A stretch of 64,000 nucleotides of DNA from Thermoanaerobaculia bacterium (GCA_017883265.1 JADGNX010000001.1:812-64811), one strand, 5' to 3'. Positions 5,557 through 33,120 are shown, numbered from the stretch's first letter. The notes: generated from the sequence alone by a model not told the origin. A program made the numbers and translations.

Positions 5557-6279
5557 CTATTCCTTCTCGACGCTGAGGCGCGCCATCAGTCGAATGAGGT
5601 TGCGATCCTCCTCGGTCCCTTCGAGATACGTCTGGCAAAGCTCCTCGACCTCGCGCTCGGTTTCGGAGGCCGAGACTGTGAACCCTTCCGCCGGCTGCTC
5701 GGGCGTCCGGCTCCACTTTGTTTCCCATCTCCGGTCGATCAGTGTGCAGCGAAGGTAACCTCGCTCGATCGCTACGGAAGATTTCGGGAGAATCTTCTCG
5801 TCGCCCTCATCGACTGGCACGCCTCCAACCGCTGCGACGATCCCTTCCCGGAATACAGGCATGACCGGTGGGGTGGCGGGAAGCACTCCGCGCGCGTTGG
5901 CCACTTGCTCGGCCAGGGAGCGGGTCACGACTGTGGAGACCAGATCCCTCAGTGCGCTGGCCGCCTCTCCTTTGTAGTCGGTAAAGGAGAGACCCGACTG
6001 ATACACGGTCGTTCCGTCCTCCCCTTCGGCAAAGCGATGGACGCGGCAGGAGACGACCTGAGCGCTCGTCTCGATCTTCGTCTCGTTCCACTGAAACCGG
6101 AACGCCGAGGTTTTCCGGAGCTCCACGCGATTGAAATGTTCGATCCGTGCACCGATATCCGTGATGTCGAGGATGATCGCTCCCATGCCTCCGAACCTGG
6201 CGATCAATCCCCGGGTCAGCTGGATCCGGGTCTTGCTCCGCCGCTCCGAGGGACGCACGGCCCCGCTTCTCGTCAACAT
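5557..6279 (-). CDS. PilZ-domain (c-di-GMP-binding-like) protein with an unknown C-terminal domain
   Basis: 240 aa. N-terminal RRSKTR (RxxxR) followed ~25 aa later by DITDIGARI (D-x-S/T-x-x-G), matching the bipartite PilZ c-di-GMP binding signature. Lies directly downstream of the ABC/M1 gene on the same strand. Confidence 0.5.
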   Translation of the reverse strand: MLTRSGAVRPSERRSKTRIQLTRGLIARFGGMGAIILDITDIGARIEHFNRVELRKTSAFRFQWNETKIETSAQVVSCRVHRFAEGEDGTTVYQSGLSFTDYKGEAASALRDLVSTVVTRSLAEQVANARGVLPATPPVMPVFREGIVAAVGGVPVDEGDEKILPKSSVAIERGYLRCTLIDRRWETKWSRTPEQPAEGFTVSASETEREVEELCQTYLEGTEEDRNLIRLMARLSVEKE

Positions 6280-6343: not shown

Positions 6344-9300
6344 CTAGTTTGCACCGACTTTCTTCGTGTTGTCTTCAGGATTCCGGTCGATCAGCTTATT
6401 GAGCGGATCGATCCCTCCCTTCGACGGTTTCCCGCTCACGACGAAGTCGAACGATGTCTGTCGTGCCGTGAGATGGTGCTTCTCCAGAATGAGGACCTTA
6501 TCGTCGTTCTTCGAGGAGCCGCTGGACAGCACTCCCAGGTCGATCCAGTCGTCGAGTGGCACCTCTTTCTCGTCTCCCATCCCGCTGGCGCGCAGCTTCT
6601 TCGCCTCCACCGTGGCCCGAACGTGGTATCTGCCGTCGGCCGACTTCGTCGATGTCAGCGCAACGTCCTTATTGTCGTAAAGCGTAATCGTCTCGAAGAG
6701 ATCGTGAATGATCGACTGGCGGTCGAGCGGCGTCATGGCCCGGAACTGCGCTACGAGCTCGCTGCTCCGCACATACGGCGGTCCCTTGAAGGCCCAGCGA
6801 CCGATGATGTTGCGGAGCGCGCGATTGACACCCTCTTCGCCGATGTAGTCACGGAGCGCATACATGACCAGCGATCCCTTCCGGTAATGAACGTATGCCT
6901 GATTCTCAACCAGCATCAGAGGCATCTCGGCGATCAATTCCCCTCCGCGTCCCTGCAGGTACGAGTTCAGCTCATGCGCCAGGAACTTGCGCATCTGGTC
7001 CCGACCGTATTCTTTCTCCATGACCATGAGTGCCGAATATTGGGCCATCGTTTCGGTGATCATCGTTGCTCCCTGCACCTGAGCACCGATGACCTGATGG
7101 GCCCACCATTGATGTGCGACTTCGTGAGCCGTGACATAGAAGACGTAGTCGATCGCCGTCTTGTCGCGCAGGTCGGCGATGAAGCCAATCGATTCAGAGA
7201 AAGGGATGGTATTGGGAAAGGACTGAGCGAAACGGGCGTAGCGGGGAAACTCCAGGATGCGGACCTGTTTGTGCTGGTAGGGAGAGAAGTTCGCCGTGTA
7301 GTAGTCGAGCGATCGCTTGACCCCGTCGATCATCCGGTCGACGTTGTACGGATGCTTCGCGTCGAAGTAGACCTCGATGGCCACATCCTTCCAGTGATCG
7401 CGCCTGACCTGATATCGAGCCGACAGGTACGACCAGAATCCGAGGATTGGCGATGTCGTCTTGTAGTGAAAGTAGTGGCGGCCGTTCGTGGTCCAATCCT
7501 TCTGCAGATAGCCGGGGGCGATGGCAATCTGATCCCCTGAAGTGCTGACGGTCGTGTCGAGATTGAGCCAGTCCGATTCCGAGGTCAGCTCATTGATGTT
7601 GCGCGCGACCGGATCATCGATCTTCGGCAGACGCTCGGCCGGCCCGAGACCGTACTTCTTCCGTTTGTTTCGGTCCTGCAGCTCAGCCACGGGCTGATAT
7701 GCAAGGTGGGGGAAATAAGCGAAGTTGTTGACGAAGGTGCCGTTGGCGACGATGTCGGTGTTGGCATTCGAGTTGACGAAGCCCTGACTCTCGACCTTGA
7801 CGGTGTATCGCATCGGCAGGGTCGCTCCGGCCGCCAGGGGAGGCGAGAGACGGTAGATGGTGTAGCCGAAGTTCCGGTCGTCGGAGCGAACCGCGGCGCC
7901 CGGAATGGTGATCGTATACGACGTGACGTCCGGATTCATCGAGACGTGCAGCTCCGGGATCGGGGCACCGCTCTTGTTCACGAGGGTATACGCGCCGCGG
8001 ATCTCCAGTGCCAGCCGTTCCGGATAAATGTCGACGTCGGCCCGGACGTCTGTGATCTTCGGTTGCGCCAGATACTGAAATCGCTTGTATTTCTTCTCGT
8101 ACTCAGCCGACCGCTTTTCGTTCTGGTCGGTCGTCCGATAGTGGTTGAGAATGTTGGTGTTGTAGTAGATGTAGCAGCCGCTGAAGACGAAGGCCACCGC
8201 CAGGAGCGCGAATACGGTTCGAGCAGGAGCGCCGAAGCGCGCCGCGGCAATCCGCAGTCGGGTTCGCATCGCGGTCTCGGAGCCTCGCACCCACATGAGA
8301 TGCCCGGCAACGATGAGGATGCCGCTGAATAGAAGCCAGTAGAGGTTGAACCACACCAACGGCTGCACAAAATGCCCAAAGCCGTTCATGTCCGAGTAGG
8401 GGGATGGCGGCGTCTGGGCGAAACGATAGAGGTAGTGCTCGAAGTGCATGGCCGGCAGCACCGCCAGGCTCACAAAGTACAGCAGCATGCACAGGAAGCC
8501 GACATACTTGTTGTTGGCCAGCACTTGTAGAAAGAACGCCAGCGTGGCGATCATGAACATGGGTAGAAGGCTGTCTGCCAGCAACCCTCTGGCGTAGAGC
8601 CCGAGCTCGTAGTTGTGATACCCCTTGGCGGTCTGCACGACGATGGTGGCCAGCACCGCCGTGGCCATGAGGAAGACGACCATGGCCCAGAGAGCCGCCA
8701 GCTTGCCGCCCCACACCGCGGAGCTGCGGACCGGCATCGAGTCGGTGACATCGCTCAGTTTCATCTGACGCTCGCGCCAGACGATCTCCCCCGCAAAAAA
8801 GGTCACGATGATCAGAGCGAAGAGGACGAAAGAGCCGGCGATCGTTCGCAGCATGACTCCGGTGACCGGATAGATCTTGGTATCGAACAATGAATCGGCG
8901 AAGGCAGCTCCGCCGGTCACGTTCAGCAATCCCAGAAAGAGAATGATGAGAAACGGCACGCTCTTGACGACGCTGGCCAGCTCGAGTCGGAAGGTGCTTC
9001 CGAACTGTGAAAGCCATGCACCGGCGTCGAAGCGCTGCGACGCGATCCCACTCCTGAGCGAAGCAGCGTTGTGCGGGCTCGCGGACAGCAACCCGGAATC
9101 GGCCGGCTCGGCGCCCTTCTGTTTCGACTTTCCCGACTTTCTTGGTCCGCTCTCGACGCGAAACCTCCAGACGGTGAAGACGAATACTGCGACGCCCACT
9201 CCGACCCAGAGAATCCGGTTCCAGAGAAAGATCCCTTCGAGTGGAAGCACCTTGGTATTGCGCTCGGCGACCGTCCAGTACCGCGTGGCCAGTGCGAACG

Positions 9301-9946
9301 AAGAGAGGCCGAAAGGATCGAACAGACTGGCGACCTTCTCGTACTCGAGATTGTTGCCGATGAACGAGTTGGCCACGACATAACTGACCAGAAACCCCAC
9401 CGCGCTGGCATAGGTGGCCATCGTGCTCCGCGTCAGGACGGCAACACAGAAGAAGATCGACGCGACGAGAAAAACGGTCGGGAGGACGAGCACGAAGAGC
9501 GAGTAGAGATACGGAACGAGGGTGAAGGCCCCGACCCGCTCCTTCTCCAGCCACGGCATGAAGCTGCCGATCATGATGCCTGCCACCACGCCGAGGTAGA
9601 CGAGGAAGGAGATGAAGACCGAGCCGGTGAAGCGGCCGAGGAGGTAGTCGCGCTTGCGGATTGGTGAAGAGAAGAAGAGGGAATCGGTGGACAGATCGTA
9701 GTCGCGCAGCGCGGCGTTGGACACGAATGCGGTCGTGGTGAAGACGGCGAAGACCGACATCACCAGCAGGAACTGCATGATGACGAACGGAGCGTTTCGA
9801 TGAACGTTGCCGATGCTGCCACCGATCTGCACGCTGTCGCTCGTCACCGCGCCGAAGGTCAGGAAAAAGAAGATGATCAGGCAGACGTAGAAGACGAGCT
9901 GCTTGAGGTGGTAGCGCGTTTCGAAGCGAATGAACTCCCTCAGCAT
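6344..9946 (-). CDS. Fusion protein: N-terminal ABC-2-type multi-pass permease and C-terminal M1-family zinc aminopeptidase
   Basis: 1200 aa. The first ~590 aa are dominated by hydrophobic TM segments. The C-terminal half contains the gluzincin motif HEVAHQWW with a downstream E, plus M1-like blocks. Confidence 0.75.
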   Translation of the reverse strand: MLREFIRFETRYHLKQLVFYVCLIIFFFLTFGAVTSDSVQIGGSIGNVHRNAPFVIMQFLLVMSVFAVFTTTAFVSNAALRDYDLSTDSLFFSSPIRKRDYLLGRFTGSVFISFLVYLGVVAGIMIGSFMPWLEKERVGAFTLVPYLYSLFVLVLPTVFLVASIFFCVAVLTRSTMATYASAVGFLVSYVVANSFIGNNLEYEKVASLFDPFGLSSFALATRYWTVAERNTKVLPLEGIFLWNRILWVGVGVAVFVFTVWRFRVESGPRKSGKSKQKGAEPADSGLLSASPHNAASLRSGIASQRFDAGAWLSQFGSTFRLELASVVKSVPFLIILFLGLLNVTGGAAFADSLFDTKIYPVTGVMLRTIAGSFVLFALIIVTFFAGEIVWRERQMKLSDVTDSMPVRSSAVWGGKLAALWAMVVFLMATAVLATIVVQTAKGYHNYELGLYARGLLADSLLPMFMIATLAFFLQVLANNKYVGFLCMLLYFVSLAVLPAMHFEHYLYRFAQTPPSPYSDMNGFGHFVQPLVWFNLYWLLFSGILIVAGHLMWVRGSETAMRTRLRIAAARFGAPARTVFALLAVAFVFSGCYIYYNTNILNHYRTTDQNEKRSAEYEKKYKRFQYLAQPKITDVRADVDIYPERLALEIRGAYTLVNKSGAPIPELHVSMNPDVTSYTITIPGAAVRSDDRNFGYTIYRLSPPLAAGATLPMRYTVKVESQGFVNSNANTDIVANGTFVNNFAYFPHLAYQPVAELQDRNKRKKYGLGPAERLPKIDDPVARNINELTSESDWLNLDTTVSTSGDQIAIAPGYLQKDWTTNGRHYFHYKTTSPILGFWSYLSARYQVRRDHWKDVAIEVYFDAKHPYNVDRMIDGVKRSLDYYTANFSPYQHKQVRILEFPRYARFAQSFPNTIPFSESIGFIADLRDKTAIDYVFYVTAHEVAHQWWAHQVIGAQVQGATMITETMAQYSALMVMEKEYGRDQMRKFLAHELNSYLQGRGGELIAEMPLMLVENQAYVHYRKGSLVMYALRDYIGEEGVNRALRNIIGRWAFKGPPYVRSSELVAQFRAMTPLDRQSIIHDLFETITLYDNKDVALTSTKSADGRYHVRATVEAKKLRASGMGDEKEVPLDDWIDLGVLSSGSSKNDDKVLILEKHHLTARQTSFDFVVSGKPSKGGIDPLNKLIDRNPEDNTKKVGAN

Positions 9947-11040: not shown

Positions 11041-11667
11041 TTATGGATGGGGATCGGGTCGCGGCACCCGTGGCGGCGCGCCGGCCTCGATCGCAAACCG
11101 CTCGAATATCTCGTAGGGCTGGCAGCCGCTGAGGCCGAGGTTGCCGATGATGAACGTCGGGATCCCATGGACGCCGACCTCGCTGGCCTCGTCGCGAGCG
11201 TCGTCGACGCGCGCCAGGATCAGCGGATCGCGCGAACGCTCCACGGCATTCTCCGCGAGGCCGGAGTCCAGGGCAATCGCGGCCAGGTCGACGTCGTTCT
11301 CGAGGTCCATACCATCGCGCCAGTGCGCGTCCATGGCCCTCGTTCTGAAGGCCTCGAGCTTCCCTTCATCGCGCGCCACCTCGGCCAACGCCAGTGCGCG
11401 ACGCGTATTCGGAATCCGCTCGCGCTGCTGGAAGTCGTCGATGCCGAACTGCGAAGCGAAACGCTTCATGTAAGCCGCCATGCCGGACAGCTTATCGGCT
11501 GGGAACATCTCGTCGAGCCGCGCTCCGCCCGCCGGTGTCTCCGGATGAAGCTCGAACCCGCGCCAATCGAGCTCCAGATCGAATTCCCCGAGCAGCCTGA
11601 CCAGACTGCTTCGCTCAGCGATATAGCAGAACGGTCAGACGAAGTCGGAGTAAAGGCGAAGTTGCAT
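11041..11667 (-). CDS. FrnE/DsbA-family thiol:disulfide oxidoreductase with an in-frame TGA (candidate selenocysteine) replacing the first Cys of the CxxC motif
   Basis: ATG at 11667..11665 is preceded by an in-frame TAG. Translation gives MQLRLYSDFV-[TGA 11637..11635]-PFCYIAERSSLVRLLGEFDLELDWRGFELHPE, continuing in frame into the track ORF 11041..11508. This matches the FrnE N-terminus ([20 protein letters not shown]). The total 208 aa equals FrnE length. Confidence 0.55.
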
Positions 11668-11817
11668 GCGGAGGTTCTAATGCAAGAGCGTTCTCAGAGC
11701 AATCCTTAGAGCTGGGCATGACCCTGTTCGTCTCTGGGAATGAAGACTGCAAATGCGTCGCGAGGACGGCACGCTCCGTGCAGTCGCTATCGCCAGTCTT
11801 TCCCGCTGAGCTCGTAG

Positions 11818-11874
11818 CTCAAAGCGGTCTCTCTCGGCCTCCGCGTTCCACGCGCGGAGGCCTTCCTTGTTTTA
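11818..11874 (+). terminator. Terminator-like element, copy 1: 10-bp GC stem (GGCCTCCGCG / CGCGGAGGCC), 6-7 nt loop, then T-rich tract
   Basis: Perfect inverted repeat 11836..11845 / 11853..11862, followed by ttccttgtttt. A conserved 5' flank aaagcggtctctctc is shared with copy 2. Confidence 0.4.
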
Positions 11875-11975
11875 AGCGACTGGGTGCCGGTATTTTCGGG
11901 CATCCATCAGATTGCTGTTCTACGGGTGCCATTTGCAGTGTCTACCTTGTTGAACTCACCCGCTTTTCGCCCCTG

Positions 11976-12030
11976 CCCAAAGCGGTCTCTCTCCCGGCCC
12001 CCGCGCTGCACGCGGGGGCTTTTCTTTTGG
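11976..12030 (+). terminator. Terminator-like element, copy 2: stem GGCCCCCGCG / CGCGGGGGCT, 5-nt loop, then T-rich tract
   Basis: Same architecture and 5' flank as copy 1. The stem differs from copy 1 at one base pair, with the change on both arms (T/A to C/G), so pairing is preserved. Followed by tttcttttgg. Confidence 0.4.
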
Positions 12031-12062
12031 GCCACCTCGCGGCGTCCAGGGTGCAGTCCGCT

Positions 12063-12359
12063 TCACCGGCTATAGAACTCGACAGCTGAGATGCCGCCTT
12101 GCGAGTCGAAGATCGTTTCCGACCGCAGGCCCGATGTGCCCTTCATACTGTGGTTCCGCTGAAGATGCTCGCGCATGTCGTTGTGGACGGCAGGGTTACT
12201 GGTCGGTCCGGCGCTATCCATCGAACCACAGATGGAGCAGGTGTAGCGAATTCGGCCCTCATGCCACGCCAGAGCATCCACGATGAATGTTGCGACAATC
12301 GAGCGATACCCTGACTCTCCCGAAGGCGGATCCTCGACCCTCACGACACTCGCCCCCAC
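12063..12359 (-). CDS. Small hypothetical protein with a possible C2H2-like zinc-binding motif
   Basis: 98 aa. YTCSICGS ... AVHNDMREHLQRNH gives C-x2-C ... H-x4-H spacing. No other support. Confidence 0.25.
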   Translation of the reverse strand: MGASVVRVEDPPSGESGYRSIVATFIVDALAWHEGRIRYTCSICGSMDSAGPTSNPAVHNDMREHLQRNHSMKGTSGLRSETIFDSQGGISAVEFYSR

Positions 12360-12573
12360 CGCCTGCGCGTAAGAACCGTGAGGGCGAATAAGAGAGGGCA
12401 GTCAGCGGTCATTCGCCCAACGATAGCAGGGACAAAATGGCGGGGAGATTAACGCGCTCGGTCGTTCCCCTGACTGACGAAGTTACAGGGGGGCGGTTGC
12501 GTCGCGAGGAGCGCGAAACGTCTTTGAACGCGTAGGCCAGACCGGCGGCAGGCGTTTGAGATTCTCAATGAGG

Positions 12574-12606
12574 CCCAAAGACAAAAGCCACCGGGCGGCG
12601 GTGGCC
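12574..12606 (-). terminator. Rho-independent terminator of tRNA-Asn
   Basis: On the minus strand: GGCCACCG-CCGCC-CGGTGGC hairpin (plus 12587..12605), followed by UUUUGUCUUUGGG immediately 3' of the tRNA. Confidence 0.5.
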
Positions 12607-18572: not shown

Positions 18573-20960
<2,388 letters not shown>

Positions 20961-20982
20961 TCAGTCGTTTTCTCGTGGTTGT

Positions 20983-21000
20983 GACTCCGATTTCGGAGTC
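20983..21000 (-). promoter_or_regulatory. Stable hairpin in the recF-gyrB intergenic region / gyrB 5' leader
   Basis: GACTCCGA-TT-TCGGAGTC perfect inverted repeat (7-8 bp stem), 22 nt upstream of the gyrB start codon. Confidence 0.3.
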
Positions 21001-21145
21001 CATTCGGCGTTCGCTCAGAGCTGCTTCGTGTCGGCCATCCCGCTGCGTAGGTCTCGCGTTACGAACGCGGACTGAGGACCGCCTTTCGGAACATTAATTG
21101 TGTATGGAAAATTCTCATTTTACGCCTTGGGGAAGGGCTCTCCTC

Positions 21146-22252
21146 TCAATGTTCGGAGACCTCGACCGCCCTACCGCCGTCCATCGCAAAACGCCGGTGC
21201 GGTCCTGTCTCTAAAGCGCTGATTACAGACTGTTTAGCAGACGTCGCGAAGAGCTGGGTGGCCGCGGGCAGATTCAGGAGCACCGCTTCGAGGATGTCGA
21301 CGTCGAGCTCGGCATCGATATCGTCGAGTACGAAGACGGCGGCCTCACCGGTCTCGTCGCGAAAATGCTCCAGTTTGGCGAATTTGAGAAACAGGACGAT
21401 CGTCTTGAGCTCCCCGCCCGAGAGGACCTCGGCGGCCGGCCTTCCTTCAAGCTCGAAAGCCACGTTGTCCCGCTGCGGTCCGACCAGAGTCATCCGGCTG
21501 CGCAACTCCTGTCGCTTCACCTCCTGGAGGCGCTGGCGCCAGGCGCCGGGGTCGCCCGAAGCCTCACCGCCCGGCAGGTAACGAAGCGTGAGGCCCGTGA
21601 CGTGGTAGCGGTAGCGGTCCACCGTAGCCCCGAGCAACGCCGAGATCCGCCTGGCATAGTCCGCCCGGGCCGCGGAGACCGGAATGGCCGCGAGCAGAAA
21701 CTCTTCATCCCACGCGTCCAGGTCGGACGCCCGGGCCTGACGCGCAGCAATTGCGTGGAGGAGCGCGTTCCGCTGTTTGAGCGCACGCTGGAAACGATTG
21801 AGCCGCTCGAGATAGCCTGGTTCCACGCTCGCGATGCCCCGGTCGAGAAACCGGCGCCGGTCTTCGGGCCCACCACGGATGATCTCCAGCCGAGAAGAGG
21901 AGTAAGCGATCACGGTCAGACTCTGGAGGTAGCGGCCGAGCGGCACCCTCTCGGCATTGATCGTCAGGACCCGCCGCGACTCCCCGGGATCGACTCCCGC
22001 GGATAGCGTCTGGGTCACACCCTGGCGCGCGATATCGCCGTTTACGAAAAGGTACGACTGCCCGAAACGGATGAGGCTCTGGGTCCTGGCAGTGCGAAAG
22101 GACTTGGTGGTGGCGAGGAAATAGACAGCCTCGAGAAGATTCGTCTTCCCCTGGCCGTTCATGCCGACGACCAGATTGACCGCCGGATGAAACCGATACT
22201 CGGCAGCTTCGAGGTTGCGAAAATTCTCGCTGCTCAGTCGCTCGAGAATCAA
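21146..22252 (-). CDS. recF: DNA replication and repair protein RecF
   Basis: 368 aa. N-terminal Walker A GMNGQGKTNLLEA, C-terminal VLDDIDAELD (Walker B/D-loop). Confidence 0.9.
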   Translation of the reverse strand: MILERLSSENFRNLEAAEYRFHPAVNLVVGMNGQGKTNLLEAVYFLATTKSFRTARTQSLIRFGQSYLFVNGDIARQGVTQTLSAGVDPGESRRVLTINAERVPLGRYLQSLTVIAYSSSRLEIIRGGPEDRRRFLDRGIASVEPGYLERLNRFQRALKQRNALLHAIAARQARASDLDAWDEEFLLAAIPVSAARADYARRISALLGATVDRYRYHVTGLTLRYLPGGEASGDPGAWRQRLQEVKRQELRSRMTLVGPQRDNVAFELEGRPAAEVLSGGELKTIVLFLKFAKLEHFRDETGEAAVFVLDDIDAELDVDILEAVLLNLPAATQLFATSAKQSVISALETGPHRRFAMDGGRAVEVSEH

Positions 22253-22256
22253 ATCG

Positions 22257-23381
22257 CTATGCGATCCGCATCGGCATGACGACGTAGAGATACTCGTACG
22301 ACAGATCGTCTGCCGCGGCGGCCGGTCGCCCGATGCACTGACTGTTCTCGTCCTTCAGTTCCAGCGAGACGTTCGGCGTGTCGACTGCGCTCAGAAAATC
22401 GGTCACGTAGGCCGCGTTGAGGCCCACGAAAAACGTCGCTCCGGCATAATCGATGGGCACCGTCTCCCGGGCGTCTCCGAGCTCCGGATTGGTCGACGAC
22501 ACGGTGAGCTTTCCCGGCGCGAAATCGAAACGGACCGCGCGCGTCCGCTCATTCGCCACGAGGGAGATCCGGCGAATCGTAGACAGCAGGCGTTCGCGGT
22601 CGACCATGACGCGACGGTCGTTGTCGCGGGCGATTACTTCCATGTAATTGGGGAAATTCACGTCGATCATGCGAGCTAGAAGCCTTCGATCGCCCGCTTC
22701 GAAGAAAAGGTGGTTTTCCGAGGTGCCGAATTGCACCAGGCCGTCTTCAGAAGCCTCGAGCCGCAGGATCTCATGAAGCGCCTTCCGTGGAATGAGAATG
22801 GTCAGCTCCTCGCTCTTCTTATGCCCGACGGTCTGGGCGAAGTTGATGAGCGCCATTCTGTGTCCGTCGGTAGCCACCATCTCCATCTTCGACGGTTGGA
22901 CTTTCAGAAGGGCGCCGTTCAACTGGAAACGCGTCTCTTCATGGGTGATGGCGAAAATCACCTTGCCGACCATTGTCTTCAGCTCATCGAGCGGCATGGA
23001 ATAGGGGTCTGTCGAGGTGACCGTCGGAAGCGTTGGATAGTCCTCCGCCGGCAGACCCAGCAGCCGGAACTTGGCGGTACCCGATTCGACCTGCAGAGAG
23101 AAATTCTCCTGCAGCGTGAGCTTGACGTCATCGTTTGGCAGGGAACGGATCACATCGAAAAAGCGGCGCGCCTCGATTGTGACTCCGCCTTCTGTGATGA
23201 CGGTTGCCGGGCAGGAGCTGAGGATCGTGACATCGAGGTCGGTGGCGGCGATCTCGAGCCGGCCATCAGTGGCCTTGATCAGAACGTTCGACAAAATCGG
23301 AATCGTCGAGCGTTTCTCGACAACTCCCTGGCAAAGCTGCAGCTCCTTTTGCAGATCAGCTTTGGCGAGCGTCAGCTCCAT
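22257..23381 (-). CDS. dnaN: DNA polymerase III beta sliding clamp
   Basis: 374 aa with three-domain clamp similarity (MELTLAKADLQKELQ...). The 4-nt gap to recF is the typical dnaN-recF arrangement. Confidence 0.9.
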   Translation of the reverse strand: MELTLAKADLQKELQLCQGVVEKRSTIPILSNVLIKATDGRLEIAATDLDVTILSSCPATVITEGGVTIEARRFFDVIRSLPNDDVKLTLQENFSLQVESGTAKFRLLGLPAEDYPTLPTVTSTDPYSMPLDELKTMVGKVIFAITHEETRFQLNGALLKVQPSKMEMVATDGHRMALINFAQTVGHKKSEELTILIPRKALHEILRLEASEDGLVQFGTSENHLFFEAGDRRLLARMIDVNFPNYMEVIARDNDRRVMVDRERLLSTIRRISLVANERTRAVRFDFAPGKLTVSSTNPELGDARETVPIDYAGATFFVGLNAAYVTDFLSAVDTPNVSLELKDENSQCIGRPAAAADDLSYEYLYVVMPMRIA

Positions 23382-23625
23382 GTCTATTCCTTTTAAAACA
23401 GAGACTCTTTAATTTGTGGTTGTAGTAGTAGATGCGTGCGGAAAAACTCGGAGTGAGTGCCAAGTGCCTCAAAAGTATAGCAGTCTTCGCAGGCGGGCCG
23501 TGTGGAGATCGTCGAGGAAAACGAGTGGATTACTCCTGAGTTTTCCACCGTGGTGACGGGCCGCTTTTTCGGCCTCTCGCTTTTCCGCAGGATTTAGGCA
23601 CTCATTCCGCAGACCGTCGCGGAAA
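23382..23625. other. Candidate oriC (dnaA-dnaN intergenic region) with an AT-rich stretch and degenerate DnaA-box-like 9-mers
   Basis: Locally AT-rich (ttttaaaacagagactctttaatttg). Contains TGTGGAGAT, TTTTCCACC and GAGTGGATTA-type matches to TTATCCACA with 1-2 mismatches. Confidence 0.4.
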
Positions 23626-24933
23626 TCATCGAAAGTGCTTGATCATCATATCGAGCGTGCTGGCCACCGATTGATCCTCCTGGCGCAGCTTGTCGATCTT
23701 CTCGACCGAGTAGATGACTGTCGAATGATGTTTGTTGTTGAAGAGTTTTCCTATTTCCGGATAGGAAAGATCGGTCAGTGACTTGCAGATGAACATGGCC
23801 ACCTGGCGTGGATAGGCCACGGGACGCGCGTTCGATTTCGACTTCAGGTCGGAAACCTTGATCCCATAGTGAGCGGCTACGAGTTTCAGGATCTCCGTCG
23901 CTGTGATCGGCTTGTTCTCCTTCGAGAGAAGATCGCGGAGTGCCTCCTTGGTCAGATCGAGGTCGATCCGATGGCCAGTGAGTGACGCGAATGCGGCGAC
24001 CCGGTTCAGATGACCCTCGAGCTCCCTGATGTTGGACCGCACACGCTCCGCCACAAAAAGCGCCACGTCATCGGGCAGAAACAATTTCCGATCCTCGGCC
24101 TTCTTTCTGAGAATGGCCACCTTCGTCTCCAGATCGGGAGGCTGGATGTCGGCGATCAGTCCCCATTCGAAACGGGAGCGGAGCCGGTCTTCAAGCGTCG
24201 GTATATCCCTGGGCGGTGCATCGGAGGTAAATACGATCTGTTTCTGCGCTTCGTACAGAGCGTTGAAGGTGTGGAAAAACTCCTCCTGCGTTCGCTCTTT
24301 GCCGGCCAGGAATTGAATATCGTCGAGCAGCAGCGCGTCGACTGACCGATAACGATCTCGAAACGAGCTCATACGGTCGTAGCGGATCGAGCTGATGAGC
24401 TCCGTGACGAACGAATCGGCCGACATGTAGACGACCTTCAGCGTCGGATTCTGTTGCTTCATCTGCTGGCCGATGGCCTGGATGAGGTGCGTCTTTCCGA
24501 GGCCTGCGCCTCCGTAGATGAAGAGAGGATTGAACGAGCCGCTCGGCTTCTCGGCGATGGAGAGCGAGGCGGCATAGGCCAGTTGATTCGAGCTCCCAAC
24601 CACGAACGTGCTGAAGCGGTATCGCGGGTTGAACAGTGCGGTGGGGGGCTCGGTCGGCGGCGGCGGAGCGGACCCGGATGGCGCCTGCTGATGCGCGGAG
24701 GCGTCTGCGACGAAATGAATTTTGGTCCGGTCTGACGCGAGCTGGCTGAGGATCGATCGGATCTGTGGACTGTAGCGATCGGAGATCGCGTCGACGAACC
24801 GTTCGTCCGGGACTCTCACTTCAATGGTCTCGCCGCGAGCCGCCAGAAAGGTGGTCGGAGCGAACCAGGTCTCGTACTCCGACCGGTCTACGGTTTGCTC
24901 GAGCCGGAGCAGGACTTCGTTCCAGAGATTCAT
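23626..24933 (-). CDS. dnaA: Chromosomal replication initiator DnaA
   Basis: AAA+ block GGAGLGKTHL and C-terminal DNA-binding helix-turn-helix (VAMFICKSLTDLSYPEIG). The start is placed at MNLWNEVLLRLEQ (ATG 24933), matching the usual DnaA N-terminus. The track ORF extends 87 nt further over the DnaA-box palindrome. Confidence 0.85.
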   Translation of the reverse strand: MNLWNEVLLRLEQTVDRSEYETWFAPTTFLAARGETIEVRVPDERFVDAISDRYSPQIRSILSQLASDRTKIHFVADASAHQQAPSGSAPPPPTEPPTALFNPRYRFSTFVVGSSNQLAYAASLSIAEKPSGSFNPLFIYGGAGLGKTHLIQAIGQQMKQQNPTLKVVYMSADSFVTELISSIRYDRMSSFRDRYRSVDALLLDDIQFLAGKERTQEEFFHTFNALYEAQKQIVFTSDAPPRDIPTLEDRLRSRFEWGLIADIQPPDLETKVAILRKKAEDRKLFLPDDVALFVAERVRSNIRELEGHLNRVAAFASLTGHRIDLDLTKEALRDLLSKENKPITATEILKLVAAHYGIKVSDLKSKSNARPVAYPRQVAMFICKSLTDLSYPEIGKLFNNKHHSTVIYSVEKIDKLRQEDQSVASTLDMMIKHFR

Positions 24934-24960
24934 GCGAGGAGGGGGCGTATCTGTCTGATG

Positions 24961-24990
24961 TTCCACAACTTTTCCACAATTGTGGAAATC
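24961..24990. promoter_or_regulatory. Cluster of DnaA-box-like sites, including the perfect palindrome TTCCACAATTGTGGAA, upstream of dnaA (autoregulatory operator candidate)
   Basis: TTTTCCACA (one mismatch to TTATCCACA) at 24970..24978. The 16-bp palindrome at 24972..24987 reads as two inverted boxes. Confidence 0.5.
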
Positions 24991-25128
24991 GCGGATGGGG
25001 AAGGCGAGGGAGTCTAGCACAGCACCCCAGCCTCATCAACCGGCGTTGTAACCACTCCGAAAGCGGTGACTCGGCGCTGGAATAGGGCACCGTTCAGTCT
25101 CGTTTGCGGCGGTGCTCTCGGTATCGCG

Positions 25129-25157
25129 TTGACCGGCCCTGGTATGACCGCTATACT
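25129..25157 (+). promoter_or_regulatory. Sigma-70-type promoter of the rpmH-rnpA-yidD-yidC operon
   Basis: TTGACC (25129..25134), a 17-bp spacer, then TATACT (25152..25157), ~30 nt upstream of the rpmH ATG. Confidence 0.5.
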
Positions 25158-25188
25158 CCCCGCTTTCTTTTCAAAAGGTTAGGACAAT

Positions 25189-25323
25189 ATGAAGCGTACC
25201 TTTCAACCGAACAACCGCCGGCGTAAGCGCACGCATGGCTTTCTCGTCCGCATGAGAACCAAAGATGGCCAGGCGGTGCTTTCGCGCCGTCGTCGCAAGG
25301 GGCGCAAGCGTCTGGCGGTTTAG
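25189..25323 (+). CDS. rpmH: 50S ribosomal protein L34
   Basis: Translates to [44 protein letters not shown] (44 aa). Not in the ORF track because it is short. Confidence 0.9.
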
Positions 25324-25347
25324 CCGTAGCCACAACGCGAGGGGTCG

Positions 25348-25734
25348 GTGGAAAACAGCCTCCTGACCGCTCGCGGTCGCCGCACCCTGCCAAAGCAGAC
25401 TCGTCTTGCCAAGCGCGCGGACTACCTTCGTACGTACGAGTCGGGACGAAAGTATTTTTCGCGTTTCTCCGTGCTGTTCATCGCTGACAACCAGATGACC
25501 TTTTCCCGGCTCGGGATTACCGCCACGAAGAAGGCAGGCAAGGCGAACATCCGCAATCGCCTCAAGCGATGGACGCGGGAGGTCTGGCGTGCTCATCGGG
25601 AGCCGCTCGCTCTCGATCTTCAGCGAGCCGATTTTGTCGTGAACATCAAACCATCGGCGGCTCGAGCCTCTTTTACCGATTTCAAGTCGGACCTGGTGGC
25701 CCTGTTCCGCCGCGCTGCAACGAGCCTGCAGTGA
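25348..25734 (+). CDS. rnpA: Ribonuclease P protein component
   Basis: 128 aa with a GTG start. A basic protein with an RNR-like motif ([18 protein letters not shown]), immediately after rpmH. Confidence 0.8.
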
Positions 25735-25744
25735 CTGGATCGCG

Positions 25745-25954
25745 ATGCGCTGGCTTCTCCTCTTCCTGCTGCGGCTCTACAAGGTGGTCGTCTCCCCGAT
25801 CCTGCCTCCGATGTGCCGATTCGAGCCGACGTGCTCGATGTATGCCATGAACGCTGTGGAAAAATACGGCGCTGTACACGGCAGTTGGCTGGCTCTCAAG
25901 CGACTCTTCCGCTGTCATCCGTTTCACCCTGGAGGTTGGGACCCCGTCCCGTAA
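25745..25954 (+). CDS. yidD: Membrane protein insertion efficiency factor YidD
   Basis: 69 aa with [31 protein letters not shown], the canonical YidD sequence. Confidence 0.85.
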
Positions 25955-25957
25955 CAA

Positions 25958-27607
25958 ATGGAAAAGCGACTATTCATGGCGGTCCTGATCTCGATCGCCT
26001 TTCTGTGGGCGTGGGCGGCGCTGGTCCCGAGATTCTTTCCCGAGCTGGTCAAACAGAAAGCCGTGGTGAAGGCAGCCGCACCTGCGTCACGTCCGAGTGT
26101 CCCGGCTGCGGTGGCCGGCGGCCAGCGGCCGGCCGCTGAAACGAGAGTGCCGGCGCCGGCACCTGTGGCGCCTATCACTCCGAAGAAGACCACGGCTTCC
26201 CTTCGGGTGACCACAGTCGATGCTCCCGACTTTGTCGCGCGATTCTCGAACCGCGGCGCGCAGCTCGTCTCCTTCCAGCTCAAACATTACAAGATGGCCG
26301 ACGGTTCGGCGGTCGATCTGGTGAAGGGACGCGACCCGACGAGGACCGACTACCCGTTCGCAATCATCGGCGCAGATCCGGCTTTCAACTCATTCGCCAA
26401 CGGGTCGCTCTATGAAGTCGCGGACGAGGTTGTGGGTCCCATCCATACCATCACATACACGGTCAGCGACGGAACGGTCTCGATCAGCAAGGTCTTCCGG
26501 ATGGGCAACGAACCGCAATTTGCCTTTTCGGTCTCCGCGACCCCACAAGGCATCCCATTCCGCGTTGTCATTGGGCCTGGAATCCGGACGCTCGCACCGG
26601 ATGAGAAGGACAACCAGTTCATCGTGACTGGAAACGCTGTCGTCCAGCGCGATGACAGCCTCAAGACCGTGCCTCGTGAGAAGGCCCCCCTCTTTCAGAC
26701 TTTCGACCCGCCAATCGACTACATCGGCATCGAAGACAACTATTTCCTCACAGTCCTCAAGCCCGAGAAAGCAGGCAGTGCTTCGATCAAGGCAGAGGAT
26801 TTCCCGCTTCTCGGAAGCGAACAGAAGAAACGCCGCGATCTGTACGCCGGTCTCAATTCAGCACCCGGCCTGGGTATGGTGAGTGGAACGTCGTTTTTCG
26901 GTCCGAAGAAGGCTGAGTTGCTCGATCACTACGGCCTCGAAAAGACCCTGCAGTTCGGCGTGTTCGGAATCATCGCCCGCTTTCTGCTGACCGCCCTGGT
27001 CTGGATCAACAAGACGACCCGGAACTACGGCTTCGCGATCATCGTCCTGACTATCCTCCTCAAAGTCGTGCTCTACCCGCTGCAACACAAGAGCATTGTC
27101 TCGATGAAGAAAATGCAGCGGGTGCAGCCGAAGATGAACGTGATCCGCGATCGCTACAAGAAGGCCAAGACCGATTCGGAACAACGCCAGAAGATGAACA
27201 TGGAGATGATGAAGCTCTACCAGACGGAGGGCATCAGCCCGATGAGCGGTTGTCTCCCGATGGTGCTTCAGCTTCCTATCCTCTGGGGTTTCTACGGGCT
27301 GCTGGGCAAGGCCATCGAATTGCGCGGAGCGCCCTTCATCTGGTGGATCCATGATCTCTCGCTCAAGGACCCGTACTACATCACGCCGATCCTCATGACC
27401 ATCACGATGTTCGTGCAGCAGCTCATCACGCCGAACACCGCGGACGCGACGCAACGGCGCATGTTTCTCATGATGCCGCTGATCTTCGGCTGGATCTTCA
27501 AGGAATTCCCGAGCGGTCTGGTTCTCTACTGGCTCGTTCAGAACATTTTGACGATAATCCAGCAGACCATCATGAATAAGTACTGGAAGGATCATCCGGC
27601 TGATTGA
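25958..27607 (+). CDS. yidC: Membrane protein insertase YidC
   Basis: 549 aa with an N-terminal TM, a large periplasmic domain and a C-terminal 5-TM core (LYPLQHKSIVSMKKMQRVQPKM...). Confidence 0.9.
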   Translation: MEKRLFMAVLISIAFLWAWAALVPRFFPELVKQKAVVKAAAPASRPSVPAAVAGGQRPAAETRVPAPAPVAPITPKKTTASLRVTTVDAPDFVARFSNRGAQLVSFQLKHYKMADGSAVDLVKGRDPTRTDYPFAIIGADPAFNSFANGSLYEVADEVVGPIHTITYTVSDGTVSISKVFRMGNEPQFAFSVSATPQGIPFRVVIGPGIRTLAPDEKDNQFIVTGNAVVQRDDSLKTVPREKAPLFQTFDPPIDYIGIEDNYFLTVLKPEKAGSASIKAEDFPLLGSEQKKRRDLYAGLNSAPGLGMVSGTSFFGPKKAELLDHYGLEKTLQFGVFGIIARFLLTALVWINKTTRNYGFAIIVLTILLKVVLYPLQHKSIVSMKKMQRVQPKMNVIRDRYKKAKTDSEQRQKMNMEMMKLYQTEGISPMSGCLPMVLQLPILWGFYGLLGKAIELRGAPFIWWIHDLSLKDPYYITPILMTITMFVQQLITPNTADATQRRMFLMMPLIFGWIFKEFPSGLVLYWLVQNILTIIQQTIMNKYWKDHPAD

Positions 27608-27628
27608 GCTGGTGATCGAGGTGATTCG

Positions 27629-28528
27629 ATGAGTCCACAGTTCGACGGAAGAACACTCGAAGAAGCCCTCGCCAGCGCGGGTGAGACACTCGGCGTCGAT
27701 CGTTATCGGCTCACCTACCACGTGGTGCTCGAGAAGAGAGGCTTTCTCGGAGGAATCAAGAGGGTAGTCATCGAGGCCGACGTCAACGACGAGGAAATAT
27801 CTCAGGAGCCGGCTCCTCGCCAGCACGCGGATAGGGTCTCCAGTGACTCCAGCACCGCTTCTCCCCGCCCCACTCCCTCTCGTTCTCGTGGCCGGCGCGG
27901 CCGTGGCCGCGATCGGGGCCCCGCTCAGGGCGCCGGCCGGACCTCACGATCCGAAAGAGGAGAGCGCGGTGAGCGGCCGCGACAGGCCCGGCGACCCGAC
28001 GAGAACGAGATCGGCGCGGCCTCCGTCTCCGCTCCCGTTCAAGAGCCGCAGACCCCGGAGGCGGCAGCAGTGGCCGAATGGTGCGGACGACTCGTCCAGC
28101 TCACGAACCTGCAACTCGATCTTCGGACGTTTGAGGACGATCAACAGATCTCGGTTCGCCTCTACGGGCGCGATCGCATGCTTGTTCTGGAGCAGAACGG
28201 CGCGCTGATGGATTCACTGCAAGTACTTACGAATAAGGCACTTGTCGGTCGCAAGGTCGAGAAGATCATCGAGTTCGACTGCGAGGAGTTCAAGGGGAAA
28301 CGCAACGATGACCTCGGCAAACAGGCGCGAGGCCTCGCCGACCGCGTCCGCAGTGACGGCCGAGAACAGCTGCTGCCGGCCATGACGCCGATCGAGCGTC
28401 GTATCGTTCATCTGGCGCTTCAGGACGACCACGAAGTGACGACCGAATCGCGCGGTGAGGGCTTCTACAAGCGAGTGGCTATCATTCGTCGGCAGGCTCC
28501 TCCCGCCGGCATGCAGCGCGAGCCGTGA
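27629..28528 (+). CDS. Jag/KhpB-family RNA-binding protein (Jag_N, KH and R3H domains) with an Arg/Gly-rich low-complexity linker
   Basis: 299 aa at the conserved position after yidC. C-terminal R3H-like block (IERRIVHLALQDDHEVTTESRGEGFYKRVAI). Confidence 0.7.
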   Translation: MSPQFDGRTLEEALASAGETLGVDRYRLTYHVVLEKRGFLGGIKRVVIEADVNDEEISQEPAPRQHADRVSSDSSTASPRPTPSRSRGRRGRGRDRGPAQGAGRTSRSERGERGERPRQARRPDENEIGAASVSAPVQEPQTPEAAAVAEWCGRLVQLTNLQLDLRTFEDDQQISVRLYGRDRMLVLEQNGALMDSLQVLTNKALVGRKVEKIIEFDCEEFKGKRNDDLGKQARGLADRVRSDGREQLLPAMTPIERRIVHLALQDDHEVTTESRGEGFYKRVAIIRRQAPPAGMQREP

Positions 28529-29859
28529 GCAGCGGCGACCCGGCCGATACCATCGTCGCTGCAGCGACGCCGCCGGCGAAGAGCGCGCTGGCGCTGGTCC
28601 GTATGGACGGGCCACGAGCGCATTCGATGATTTGCGGGCTAGCCAACCGGGAGCCTCCAGCCGAACGCGTGGCAACCCGCGTGACGCTGACCGATCATGG
28701 GGAAACCCTGGACGACTGCGTGATGACCCTCTACATGGGGCCGCGTAGCTTCACCGGGAATGACCTGGTCGAGCTCTCACTTCACGGCAGCCCACTGGTG
28801 GTAGAGAACGTCATCAGGGCCGCGCTTCGATGTGGTGCGCGGATGGCGGAACCGGGCGAATTCACGGAGCGGGCGGTCCTGAATGGAAAGATCGATCTCA
28901 TTCAGGCCGAGGCCATCGCGGATCTCATCGACGCGCGCACGTCGCTCCAGGCTCGCATGTCTCTGGCGAACATGGCCGGGCGTCTGAGTAATGAAGCTGC
29001 TGGTATTCGCGAGAGGCTGTTGTTCGTCATTTCGCGCCTCGAGGCGGCTCTCGATTTCAGCGAAGAAGGTTACGACTTCATCAGTCGCGAGGCTGCCGGC
29101 ACGATTCTCGACGAAGTCATTCGCCTGGAAGAGACGTTGGCGCAGACCTACGAGAGGGGTCGAGCGACACGACGAGGCCTGAAGATCGTCCTCCTCGGCG
29201 CACCGAACTCGGGAAAATCGACGCTGCTCAACACCTTGGTCGGGAGTGAGCGCGCCATCGTCACGGAGATCGCGGGCACGACCCGCGACCTGATCTCAGA
29301 AACGATCGAGATCGCGGGACTTCCCGTGACGGTAACGGATACTGCCGGGCTTCGGGCCAGCGACAACCTTATCGAGGTCATGGGGATCGAGCGTGCCCGT
29401 CTGGCGGCATCAGATGCCGACCTCATCCTGTATCTGATCGACACGACAGTGGGCCGGACGGTAGCGGACAATGACGAGCTCAGCCGCTTGCCGCATCCTC
29501 CCCTCGTCGTTTACACCAAGGGAGATCTGAGCTCGGGGCCCGTGGGCGAGTTGGCCATCAGCGCCCTCCGGGGAGCCGGGATGCCAGAGCTGTTCTGCGA
29601 GCTCGACCGTACGGTTCGCGACCGGTTCGCGGTCCGCTCCGACTCCCCGGCTGTTGTAAACGAGCGGCAGATCGCCGCCCTGCGCGACGGAATCTCGGCC
29701 TTGCAAATGGCGCGAGAGACGCTCGAGACGGGTGCTTCTGAGGAAGTGATCCTGGTCGATCTTTACCGAGGTGCGGAGGCCGTGGAAAGGCTGATTGGCC
29801 GGATAGAGAGCGAGGAGGTTTTCGCCGAGATCTTTGCAAAATTTTGCATCGGTAAGTAG
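28525..29859 (+). CDS. mnmE: tRNA modification GTPase MnmE
   Basis: 444 aa with G1 GAPNSGKSTLLN, G3 DTAGLR and C-terminal CIGK. Confidence 0.9.
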   Translation: MSSGDPADTIVAAATPPAKSALALVRMDGPRAHSMICGLANREPPAERVATRVTLTDHGETLDDCVMTLYMGPRSFTGNDLVELSLHGSPLVVENVIRAALRCGARMAEPGEFTERAVLNGKIDLIQAEAIADLIDARTSLQARMSLANMAGRLSNEAAGIRERLLFVISRLEAALDFSEEGYDFISREAAGTILDEVIRLEETLAQTYERGRATRRGLKIVLLGAPNSGKSTLLNTLVGSERAIVTEIAGTTRDLISETIEIAGLPVTVTDTAGLRASDNLIEVMGIERARLAASDADLILYLIDTTVGRTVADNDELSRLPHPPLVVYTKGDLSSGPVGELAISALRGAGMPELFCELDRTVRDRFAVRSDSPAVVNERQIAALRDGISALQMARETLETGASEEVILVDLYRGAEAVERLIGRIESEEVFAEIFAKFCIGK

Positions 29860-29874
29860 TGTTCCACGTGAAAC

Positions 29875-31866
29875 ATGACGGATAGATACGATGTCGTCGT
29901 GATCGGCGGCGGTCACGCCGGCGCGGAAGCCGCCCGCATCGCCGCCCGTGGCGGGTCCAGCGTTGCTCTGGTGACCATGGCCCGACAGGCCATCGGCCGC
30001 ATGTCGTGCAACCCGGCGATCGGCGGCCTGGCCAAGGGCAATCTGGTCAAAGAGATCGATGCGCTCGGCGGGCTGATGGGCGAAGCCGCGGATCGCTCCG
30101 GCATCCAATTCAAGATTCTCAATCGCTCCAAGGGACCTGCGGTTCAGGGACCTCGAGCGCAGTGTGATCGTGATCTCTATGCCGAAGCGGTTCAGAATCT
30201 TCTGGCATGCGAGGCCAACCTCGCCGTGGTCGAGGGAACGGTCCGTTCGCTCCTGATCGAGGGGTCTCGCGTCCGCGGTGTTCTACTCATTGACGGGCGG
30301 CTCCTGACCAGCTCCGCGTGCGTCGTGACGACCGGTACCTTTCTGCGAGCCCTCATGCATTCGGGCGAAGAACAGAGCCCAGGTGGCCGCTTCGGCGAGC
30401 CTTCGGCCCAGACCCTGTCCGATTCGCTCCGGATGCTCGGCCTCAACCTCGGCCGGCTCAAGACCGGAACCCCGCCTCGCGTCGATCGGAGCTCGGTCGA
30501 TTTCGGCCGGCTCGTTCCGCAGCCCGGCGATGCCTCCCCACGGCCGTTTTCGATTCTCACCGACCGCCTCGAGCTTCCGCAGGTCCTTTGCCACCTCACG
30601 CATACGAGCGAGGCCACGCACCAGCTCATCCGGGCCAACCTTCACAGGGCTCCGATGTACAGCGGACAGATCGCCGCCACCGGTCCGCGTTACTGCCCGT
30701 CGATCGAGGATAAGGTCGTCCGCTTTTCAGACAAGCCGAGGCATCAGGTGTTTGTCGAGCCGGAAGGGCTGAATCACCCGTGGTTGTACATGAATGGGAT
30801 CTCGACATCGCTACCGTCCGATGTCCAGGACGGTGTCGTTCGGTCGTTGCCCGGCTTCGAAGAGGCCGTGATAGCCCGCTACGGATATGCCGTCGAGTAC
30901 GATTTCGTGAATCCGCAACAGCTGGAGCCGACTCTGAAGGTCCGGGGGATCGAAGGCTTGTATCTGGCTGGCCAGATCAACGGTACCTCAGGATATGAAG
31001 AGGCGGCGGCCCAGGGCCTCATCGCCGGGATCAACGCCCTCCTGGCGGTAAGAGGCCGGCAACCGTTCATCCTTCGCCGGGATCAGGCCTATGCCGGCGT
31101 GATGATCGACGACCTCGTGACTCAGGGCACCGAGGAGCCGTATCGCATGTTTACCTCGCGGGCCGAGCACCGGTTACTTCTGGGATGCGATTCGGTCTAC
31201 GAACGTTTGACGCCCCTGATCGAAGAGCTGGGTATCTCGGACATCGAGCGGCTGCGGCGGGCTGCCGGGCGCCGCAGCCGTATGCGAGCAGCTTGCGCTG
31301 CTGCTGAGCAGGCGGTATTGACACCGGAACGGGGCACGACAGAATGGCTCGGTCCTCTGGGAATCGTACTGCGGGAAAAGACGACCGTGGCGCGGCTGGC
31401 GCAACGGATCCCGTTCGAGCTGAAGGATTTCGTGACGCACTGCCGGGAAGCTTCGCGCTGGCCGGAGTTGACCTGGGCGGTCGACGGGCTCTCGGACGAA
31501 GAGCGGGAGGGGGTCGTCAACGAGTTGCGCTACGCGGGTTACCTGGAGCGGCAGCAGCGCGAGGCCGATTCGCTTCAACGGGTCGAGGCAGTCGCGATCC
31601 CCGGCGACATGGCGTACGAGTTGCCAGGCTTGTCCCGTGAATTAGTCGAAAAGCTCAATGCCACGCGGCCTGTCTCCCTCGGACAGGCCAGTCGAATACG
31701 AGGGATGACGCCCGCGGCGTTGTCCCTTCTTCGCATGCATCTGCACCAGAGAGGACGCAGGGCCGATGGAGCAGCAGGAGCGGTTGGAAAGGTTTCGAGA
31801 TCTTCTGCGCGCGTGGGGCCGGAAGGTCAATCTGATCGGTCCGGAAGCGTTCGCTCATCTGGATGA
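29875..31866 (+). CDS. mnmG: tRNA uridine 5-carboxymethylaminomethyl modification enzyme MnmG (GidA)
   Basis: 663 aa with FAD motif VVIGGGHAGAEAA, the conserved SCNPAIGG block and C-terminal LGQASRIRGMTPAALSLL. It ends with a ~38-aa low-complexity tail that overlaps rsmG. Confidence 0.9.
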   Translation: MTDRYDVVVIGGGHAGAEAARIAARGGSSVALVTMARQAIGRMSCNPAIGGLAKGNLVKEIDALGGLMGEAADRSGIQFKILNRSKGPAVQGPRAQCDRDLYAEAVQNLLACEANLAVVEGTVRSLLIEGSRVRGVLLIDGRLLTSSACVVTTGTFLRALMHSGEEQSPGGRFGEPSAQTLSDSLRMLGLNLGRLKTGTPPRVDRSSVDFGRLVPQPGDASPRPFSILTDRLELPQVLCHLTHTSEATHQLIRANLHRAPMYSGQIAATGPRYCPSIEDKVVRFSDKPRHQVFVEPEGLNHPWLYMNGISTSLPSDVQDGVVRSLPGFEEAVIARYGYAVEYDFVNPQQLEPTLKVRGIEGLYLAGQINGTSGYEEAAAQGLIAGINALLAVRGRQPFILRRDQAYAGVMIDDLVTQGTEEPYRMFTSRAEHRLLLGCDSVYERLTPLIEELGISDIERLRRAAGRRSRMRAACAAAEQAVLTPERGTTEWLGPLGIVLREKTTVARLAQRIPFELKDFVTHCREASRWPELTWAVDGLSDEEREGVVNELRYAGYLERQQREADSLQRVEAVAIPGDMAYELPGLSRELVEKLNATRPVSLGQASRIRGMTPAALSLLRMHLHQRGRRADGAAGAVGKVSRSSARVGPEGQSDRSGSVRSSG

Positions 31867-33108: not shown

Positions 33109-33120
33109 GAATGCAATCGT

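Follow-up and report, generated by a model that had tools for sequence, protein, structure and literature searches.

The 64,000-nucleotide stretch of Thermoanaerobaculia bacterium DNA analyzed here (hereafter, the window) carries, on its minus strand, a gene for a DsbA/FrnE-like oxidoreductase whose reading frame is broken by a single TGA codon. The ORF list of the window contains only the 3′ part of this gene, a 155-aa ORF at 11041..11508 (-) that does not include the thioredoxin active site. Extension upstream in the same frame, without a frameshift, reaches an ATG at 11667..11665 (-) that lies behind an in-frame TAG; this gene structure had been put forward in an earlier note on the same DNA, and translation of the region agrees with it. 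When 11700..11041 is translated in this frame, it reads ...H-stop-NLR-MQLRLYSDFV-stop-PFCYIAERSSLVRLLGEFDLELDWRGFELHPETP... and then continues into the listed ORF. The TGA at 11637..11635, in the context MQLRLYSDFV-TGA-PFCYIAERSSLVRLLGEF, is the sole interruption of the frame. The reconstructed product comes to 208 codons, as had also been proposed. Orthologues share the same start Met and keep the frame across the TGA. The region 5′ of the ATG is unconserved among them, and several have stops there. The features of the locus are collected in Table 1.

Table 1. Features of the candidate selenoprotein genes in the window, with the observations on which each is based.
Feature	Position	Strand	Description and basis
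DsbA/FrnE-like CDS, putative selenoprotein	11041..11667	(-)	208 codons including predicted Sec11; translation, PF01323, FrnE 5cnw, orthologues
Terminal stop TAA	11043..11041	(-)	translation
In-frame TAG upstream of the ATG	11677..11679	(-)	5′ bound of the ORF; translation
Predicted Sec codon UGA, residue 11	11635..11637	(-)	N-terminal nucleophilic position of U-P-F-C; Sec/Cys alignment
Cys14 codon TGC	11626..11628	(-)	resolving Cys of UxxC; translation and alignment A2
Predicted bacterial SECIS hairpin	11591..11610	(-)	8-bp stem AGCAGUCU/AGGCUGCU; GGUC tetraloop 11602..11599
5′ strand of alternative helix, GUC-UGA-CCG-UUC-UGC-U	11625..11640	(-)	pairs with 11610..11595; sequesters the UGA
Putative cis-Pro loop, G168-I169-P170-T171	11155..11166	(-)	invariant in alignment A1 (25 sequences); aligned to GVP of FrnE
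DedA/VTT membrane domain with C-terminal rhodanese, candidate selenoprotein	58450..59391	(-)	TGA 58587..58585

With Cys substituted at the TGA, the protein matched Pfam family PF01323 (DSBA) over residues 3-189 (E=2e-27; 96.7 bits, with a cut-off of 25.6). The closest solved structure is that of Deinococcus radiodurans FrnE (PDB 5cnw / 5cp1; E=1e-16, 64.5 bits, residues 3-187). The UGA is aligned with the first Cys of the FrnE motif CPWC, which reads CPFC in Cys homologues. Toward the C terminus, we take the G168-I169-P170-T171 segment to be the cis-Pro loop facing the active site, judging from its position and from general knowledge of the thioredoxin fold. NCBIfam held no specific model for the protein; the search returned only a weak partial match to NF041057 (22.7 bits, with a cut-off of 190), a different thioredoxin-like (seleno)lipoprotein family. 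The predicted Sec11 lies so near the N terminus that, judged by position, a signal peptide could not be accommodated ahead of the active site, and orthologues start alike. A cytoplasmic location is therefore probable, as for FrnE and in contrast to periplasmic DsbA.

Homologues were sought among 5.8 billion proteins, and the best 120 clusters were inspected. The nearest relatives (66-100% identity) are all N-terminally truncated, with lengths of 147-194 aa and inconsistent starts located past the active site. Remoter relatives (52-61% identity) are full length (~203-207 aa) and begin with ...LRLY[ST]DFVCPFCFIAE. Overall, CPxC is present in 65 of these 120 closest clusters, and the N terminus is missing in 55. 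We also retrieved the DNA of 50 homologous loci from species-representative genomes and read the codon at the first CxxC Cys directly. This codon is TGA at 34 loci and TGC or TGT at the other 16; TAA and TAG do not occur. With the window gene included, TGA is found in 35 of 51 genes. The orthologue alignment, set as a test in the earlier note, thus contains a Cys/Sec pair at the first CxxC position. The TGA of the window gene falls on exactly this Cys, as had been claimed, and the accompanying judgment that a chance stop on the catalytic Cys codon is unlikely holds up against these counts.

The TGA loci span at least six lineages: Thermoanaerobaculia, Myxococcota, Binatia, Longimicrobiales, a Bacillota MAG, and Gaiellaceae. 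They include 11 Thermoanaerobaculia MAGs, whose proteins are 67-73% identical to that of the window, along with assorted “Deltaproteobacteria,” one Bacillota MAG, one Gaiellaceae MAG, and Myxococcota, Anaeromyxobacter among them. The Anaeromyxobacter sp. homologues among the fetched loci are 52-54% identical to the window protein, and one of them (L030) has TGA.

Purifying selection acts on both sides of the TGA. When entropy was summed over the 13 codons flanking it, third positions reached 11.2, compared with 4.5 at first and 4.5 at second positions. Since variation is concentrated at third positions on both sides, the frame must be translated before and after the TGA. Neither a pseudogene nor a sequencing error accounts for such a frame, and neither does translation restarting downstream. 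In the first two cases, the TGA would be a nonsense mutation or an error in the read sequence, and the gene would be a pseudogene or an artefact. Gene callers and databases do give only the 155-aa fragment, as would be expected in that case. However, the same TGA, and never TAA or TAG, recurs in 34 independent assemblies from several phyla; the codons on either side are constrained; and a TGA-specific hairpin, described below, is conserved downstream. We therefore assign a vanishingly small probability to a pseudogene or artefact.

If the UGA were instead a true stop, translation would start downstream of it and yield a shorter protein devoid of CxxC, to which the 10 codons upstream would not belong. 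Annotated homologues indeed begin at assorted downstream ATG, GTG, or TTG codons, but these starts differ between orthologues (residues 26, 36, 41, and 64), and the resulting product would be without strand beta-1 and the entire active site. Moreover, the N-terminal 10 residues together with the PFC that follows the UGA are conserved in frame, with variation at third positions. Downstream restart is thus very improbable, and we return to the reading in which the UGA is decoded.

The earlier note had also pointed to stem-loop potential in the mRNA after the UGA, which was essentially right. The actual hairpin, AGCAGUCU-GGUC-AGGCUGCU, spans nucleotides 25-44 past the UGA, is kept in orthologues, and is specific to the TGA forms; it encodes the peptide S-S-L-V-R-L-L. 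Its conservation was assessed in A2, an alignment without gaps of the 33 Sec forms that could be aligned. RNAfold predicted a hairpin with the GGUC loop in 30 of these 33 sequences. Standard pairs make up 90% of the hairpin cells in A2; with the 3′ partner shifted by 1-3 columns, the figure drops to 17-51%. Two-sided changes are seen at three pairs: G35-C52 becomes C-G in L037, G38-C49 becomes A-U in L022, and U39-G48 becomes U-A in L002. Two-sided covariation is this sparse (three cells) because the hairpin is so conserved. At columns 17-18 of the same alignment, which belong to the Cys14 codon, TG is invariant, and the C of this codon is nearly invariant. The two most divergent Sec forms, L047 and L050, have a differing sequence 3′ of the UGA; L047 has an 8-bp hairpin of its own, with a GGA loop, 21 nt past the UGA.

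The hairpin is missing from most Cys forms, and its mean stability is -10.6 kcal/mol in Sec forms versus -5.5 kcal/mol in Cys forms. The same difference is visible in the encoded peptide and in codon choice. S-S-L-V-R-L is a signature peptide of Sec forms; in Cys forms, this stretch is S-T-V-P-R-L or a similar peptide. For the Arg within the stem, 30 of 35 Sec forms use the rare codon AGG, and most Cys forms use CGC or CGG. Two TGC homologues, from a Myxococcales MAG (L019:3001-3130) and an Anaeromyxobacter sp. (L031:3001-3130), retain most of the SECIS stem (AGCAGC...GGCUGC). Their stems fold at -11.1 and -11.8 kcal/mol, respectively, and the GGUC loop is gone. Judged by sequence, both appear to have changed from Sec to Cys recently and to retain a fossil SECIS.

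The published model of the bacterial SECIS (bSECIS) specifies a loop of 3-9 nt, a stem of 4-16 bp, and a G in the first two loop positions, as well as a UGA-to-loop distance of 16-37 nt and a minimum free energy (MFE) of at most -7.5 kcal/mol (PMC13188914). A comparison of this kind had been suggested in the earlier note, and the hairpin falls within all four limits of the model, with a 4-nt loop (GGUC), an 8-bp stem, a UGA-to-loop distance of 32 nt (so that nucleotide 33 past the UGA is the first of the loop), and an MFE of -10.7 kcal/mol. The isolated hairpin folds at -10.7 to -12.2 kcal/mol. When the 60 nt after the UGA were folded by themselves, another check proposed earlier, the fold was no better than that of shuffled sequences (z=-1.0), and the same was true of the 42 and 31 nt after the UGA (z ~ -1). 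Since single-sequence folds match shuffles, thermodynamics was not used as evidence, and the assignment of the hairpin as a predicted SECIS is comparative, not thermodynamic. Rfam was searched with the entire window at the gathering threshold and with 11450..11750 at E<=10; the only hits were a tRNA-Asn and two chance miRNA matches, and no curated family corresponded to this SECIS.

The UGA might also be decoded as an amino acid other than Sec, either by a Cys-charged tRNA(Sec)-like tRNA acting with a SelB paralogue or by SECIS-independent read-through by a near-cognate tRNA. The first of these routes has precedents among known systems. Against such recoding, the hairpin fits the canonical SelB-type bSECIS model, including its GGUC loop; the family is a documented Sec family; and a second gene in the same window belongs to a known (seleno)protein family, NF041203. 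Non-Sec recoding is, in our view, distinctly improbable.

Sec decoding was next considered at the level of the window as a whole. TGA ends ~19 of the 44 high-GC3 ORFs in the window; since it is common as a normal stop, the recoding would be local, and UGA is not globally reassigned. SelA, SelB, and SelD were absent among the 40 ORFs of the 64-kb window that were scanned with Pfam, and ARAGORN found only tRNA-Asn in the window and no tRNA-Sec (selC). A GC3-based scan for in-frame TGA codons recovered the TGA at 11637..11635 and missed the second gene, a DedA-rhodanese fusion. Eight other in-frame TGA sites were rejected as antisense or adjacent-gene artefacts, judged from their translations alone.

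The second gene encodes a DedA/VTT membrane domain followed by a rhodanese domain. The context of its TGA translates as ILYCT-U-PNEASAARVARMLIDQGF..., and the putative Sec region reads ILYCT-U-PNEASAARVARM; Cys homologues have YCT-C-PNEAS at this place. Among the 120 closest database clusters, 90 end at exactly ...[VI]LYCT. A gene with 60% identity, the same TGA, and conserved read-through is present in a 5.9-Mb contig (L051). The top NCBIfam model is NF041203, “rhodanese_LYCAU rhodanese-related (seleno)protein,” with 81.9 bits, which is under its full-length cut-off of 115. The true stop of the DedA-rhodanese gene, TGA 58452..58450, overlaps an ATG at 58450 of a downstream methyltransferase gene (TGATG). 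Because this overlap places the ATG at 58450, the listed GTG start of the methyltransferase at 58588 is probably wrong. We also observed, ~20 nt past the UGA of the DedA-rhodanese gene, a GC stem with a CGUGU loop, in which the window and L051 differ by one G-U to C-G change.

The two genes are unrelated and lie 47 kb from each other, and in both the TGA is aligned with Cys; an organism that decodes Sec is the best explanation. The second gene thus gives indirect support for Sec decoding here, as far as sequence comparison can indicate it. Sec use by Acidobacteria was already documented in 2006 (PMC1794560). If both genes are read in this way, they mark the Thermoanaerobaculia lineage as a selenium user.

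Taken together, the position of the TGA, the Cys/Sec pair among homologues, and the predicted SECIS make it very likely that this is a selenoprotein gene, coding for a DsbA/FrnE-type oxidoreductase with UGA-encoded Sec in place of the first active-site Cys. From these comparisons, we infer both insertion of Sec at the UGA and binding of SelB. When a ribosome arrives at the UGA (11637..11635), the hairpin at 11610..11591 would recruit SelB with GTP and Sec-tRNA(Sec), and Sec would then be inserted in place of termination. In the protein, the Sec11 selenolate would attack substrate disulfides (or sulfenic/selenenic species) to form a selenenylsulfide, which Cys14 would resolve. Apart from its more reactive nucleophile, this would be ordinary CxxC chemistry.

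In free mRNA, the region around the UGA can also form a long-range helix. One part of it joins GUCUGACCG to UGGUCAGGC, and another joins CUGCU, in the Phe-Cys codons, to AGCAG; the UGA would thus be buried in ~14 bp. This helix is the MFE fold of the 71 nt that start 3 nt before the UGA (-33.5 kcal/mol, z=-4.18), and in this fold, the GUC-UGA-CCG strand is paired with UGGUCAGGC. Because the helix and the SECIS hairpin have a 3′ strand in common, they are mutually exclusive. The helix is also impossible while a ribosome occupies the UGA. Its pairing is preserved in 94.6% of cells across the 33 Sec forms, which represent several phyla, and covariation across these forms is no better than in shuffles.

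One model for these observations is a conserved toggle, in which the UGA would at first be sequestered in the helix; an advancing ribosome would then open the 5′ strand of the helix, and the freed 3′ strand would refold in time as the SelB-binding hairpin. Were this so, presentation of the SECIS would be coupled to translation, or Sec insertion would be tuned against termination. The only variant that discriminates between the two structures is L037, in which C35-G52 suits the hairpin and breaks the long helix. In L018, L037, and L050, the UGA is not consistently paired, which lowers the standing of the toggle, and we consider it unlikely. Alternatively, two sequences that are each constrained independently may give rise to the helix as a by-product.

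The earlier note had placed the gene at the head of a same-strand string with ABC ATPase and M1 peptidase genes, but this string is unconserved beside orthologues. No conserved neighbour was found when the window neighbours (ABC ATPase, M1-peptidase protein, 240-aa ORF, RNase G, and others) were compared by tblastn with the 50 loci, and all-against-all clustering of flanking ORFs revealed synteny within genus only. With conservation of neighbours confined to the genus, the surroundings point to no functional partner, and the ABC ATPase and M1-peptidase genes are uninformative about function. The 240-aa ORF at 5557..6279, which had been described as PilZ, has no Pfam match at 1e-5. The 1200-aa ORF at 6344..9946 (-), which is located downstream of the ABC ATPase gene, matches Peptidase_M1 over residues 874-1053 only (E=1.5e-9), and its N-terminal ~870 residues have no Pfam match at 1e-5.

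Several other features of the window were noted. Between the tRNA-Asn and the predicted selenoprotein gene lie ~900 nt (11668..12580) without a convincing ORF, in which Rfam detected nothing. Two similar GC-rich terminator-like hairpins are located there on the plus strand, at 11836..11862 and 11996..12020 (+), 160 nt apart. Both follow the pattern GGCC(T/C)CCGCG...CGCGG(A/G)GGC and then a T-run; the pair may represent a repeated element or small-RNA terminators. Farther away, 18573..33991 is the chromosomal replication-origin neighbourhood with gyrA, gyrB, recF, dnaN, dnaA, yidC, jag, mnmE, mnmG, parA, and parB, and the window also holds ATP synthase genes and topA.

The JGI name of the homologues is “predicted DsbA family dithiol-disulfide isomerase,” which we take to resemble the description of COG2761. 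A 2005 study of the Sargasso Sea metagenome introduced DsbA-like COG2761 proteins with UxxC as a new family of selenoproteins, with nine sequences and a predicted SECIS (PMC1088965), and DsbA-like selenoproteins were recorded in 2006 in Anaeromyxobacter dehalogenans, Desulfovibrio desulfuricans, and Desulfotomaculum reducens (PMC1794560). A 2026 review has the entry “DsbA-like protein form 1, PF01323, UxxC” (PMC13188914). The assertion of the earlier note that DsbA/FrnE-like proteins are among the documented selenoprotein families is thus borne out by published COG2761 UxxC members (PMC1088965, PMC1794560, PMC13188914). A literature search turned up no account of the family in Thermoanaerobaculia; one soil metaproteomics study contains both “Thermoanaerobacul” and “selenocysteine.”

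Because the gene has the features of DsbA-like form 1, namely PF01323, UxxC, and the cis-Pro loop, it is a member of the known family. It is a mis-annotated addition to that family and an element of no new kind, and it leaves general knowledge of selenoproteins unchanged. Its value lies in annotation: the window gene and 55 of the 120 closest clusters are stored in truncated form, with the catalytic residue lost, and 90 of the 120 closest DedA-rhodanese clusters are likewise truncated. Recognition of the putative Sec codons restores these active sites. In addition, the predicted GGUC-loop SECIS is conserved at the nucleotide level across Acidobacteriota, Myxococcota, Binatia, and Longimicrobiales. 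The resulting data set suits the study of constraint on coding sequence, for example, through the rare AGG codon and the S-S-L-V-R-L signature.

The predicted SECIS resembles that of the E. coli fdhF type in being a stem-loop within the coding sequence just 3′ of the UGA. The fdhF apex also has a GGUC loop, in which G23 and U24 contact SelB. A small apical loop with a G followed by G or U is shared with fdhF and with the bSECIS model of Zhang and Gladyshev; relative to that model, the UGA-to-loop distance of 32 nt is near the upper end of the 16-37 nt range. In contrast to the fdhF-type SECIS, no bulged U is evident in the upper stem here, and the 3′ strand can pair with the UGA region instead.

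At the protein level, the closest parallel is FrnE of D. radiodurans, a cytoplasmic disulfide isomerase of the DsbA family with an N-terminal active site, whose position also excludes a signal peptide. Similarity to FrnE is modest, however: FrnE has Cys (CPWC) where Sec is predicted here, and its chain is longer (260 residues versus 208), with the alignment stopping at FrnE residue 210. The C-terminal extension of FrnE (~50 residues) has no counterpart in the window protein, whose tail, RFAIEAGAPPRVPRPDPHP, is without Cys; in FrnE, this extension carries a second Cys pair. Periplasmic DsbA of the E. coli type differs in its N-terminal signal peptide, which is precluded by position here. Finally, DsbA-like selenoprotein form 1 has the same PF01323 domain and the same UxxC motif with Sec first. 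Nothing sets the window gene categorically apart from it; this copy lies in Thermoanaerobaculia (Acidobacteriota) and has been annotated as a 155-aa fragment.
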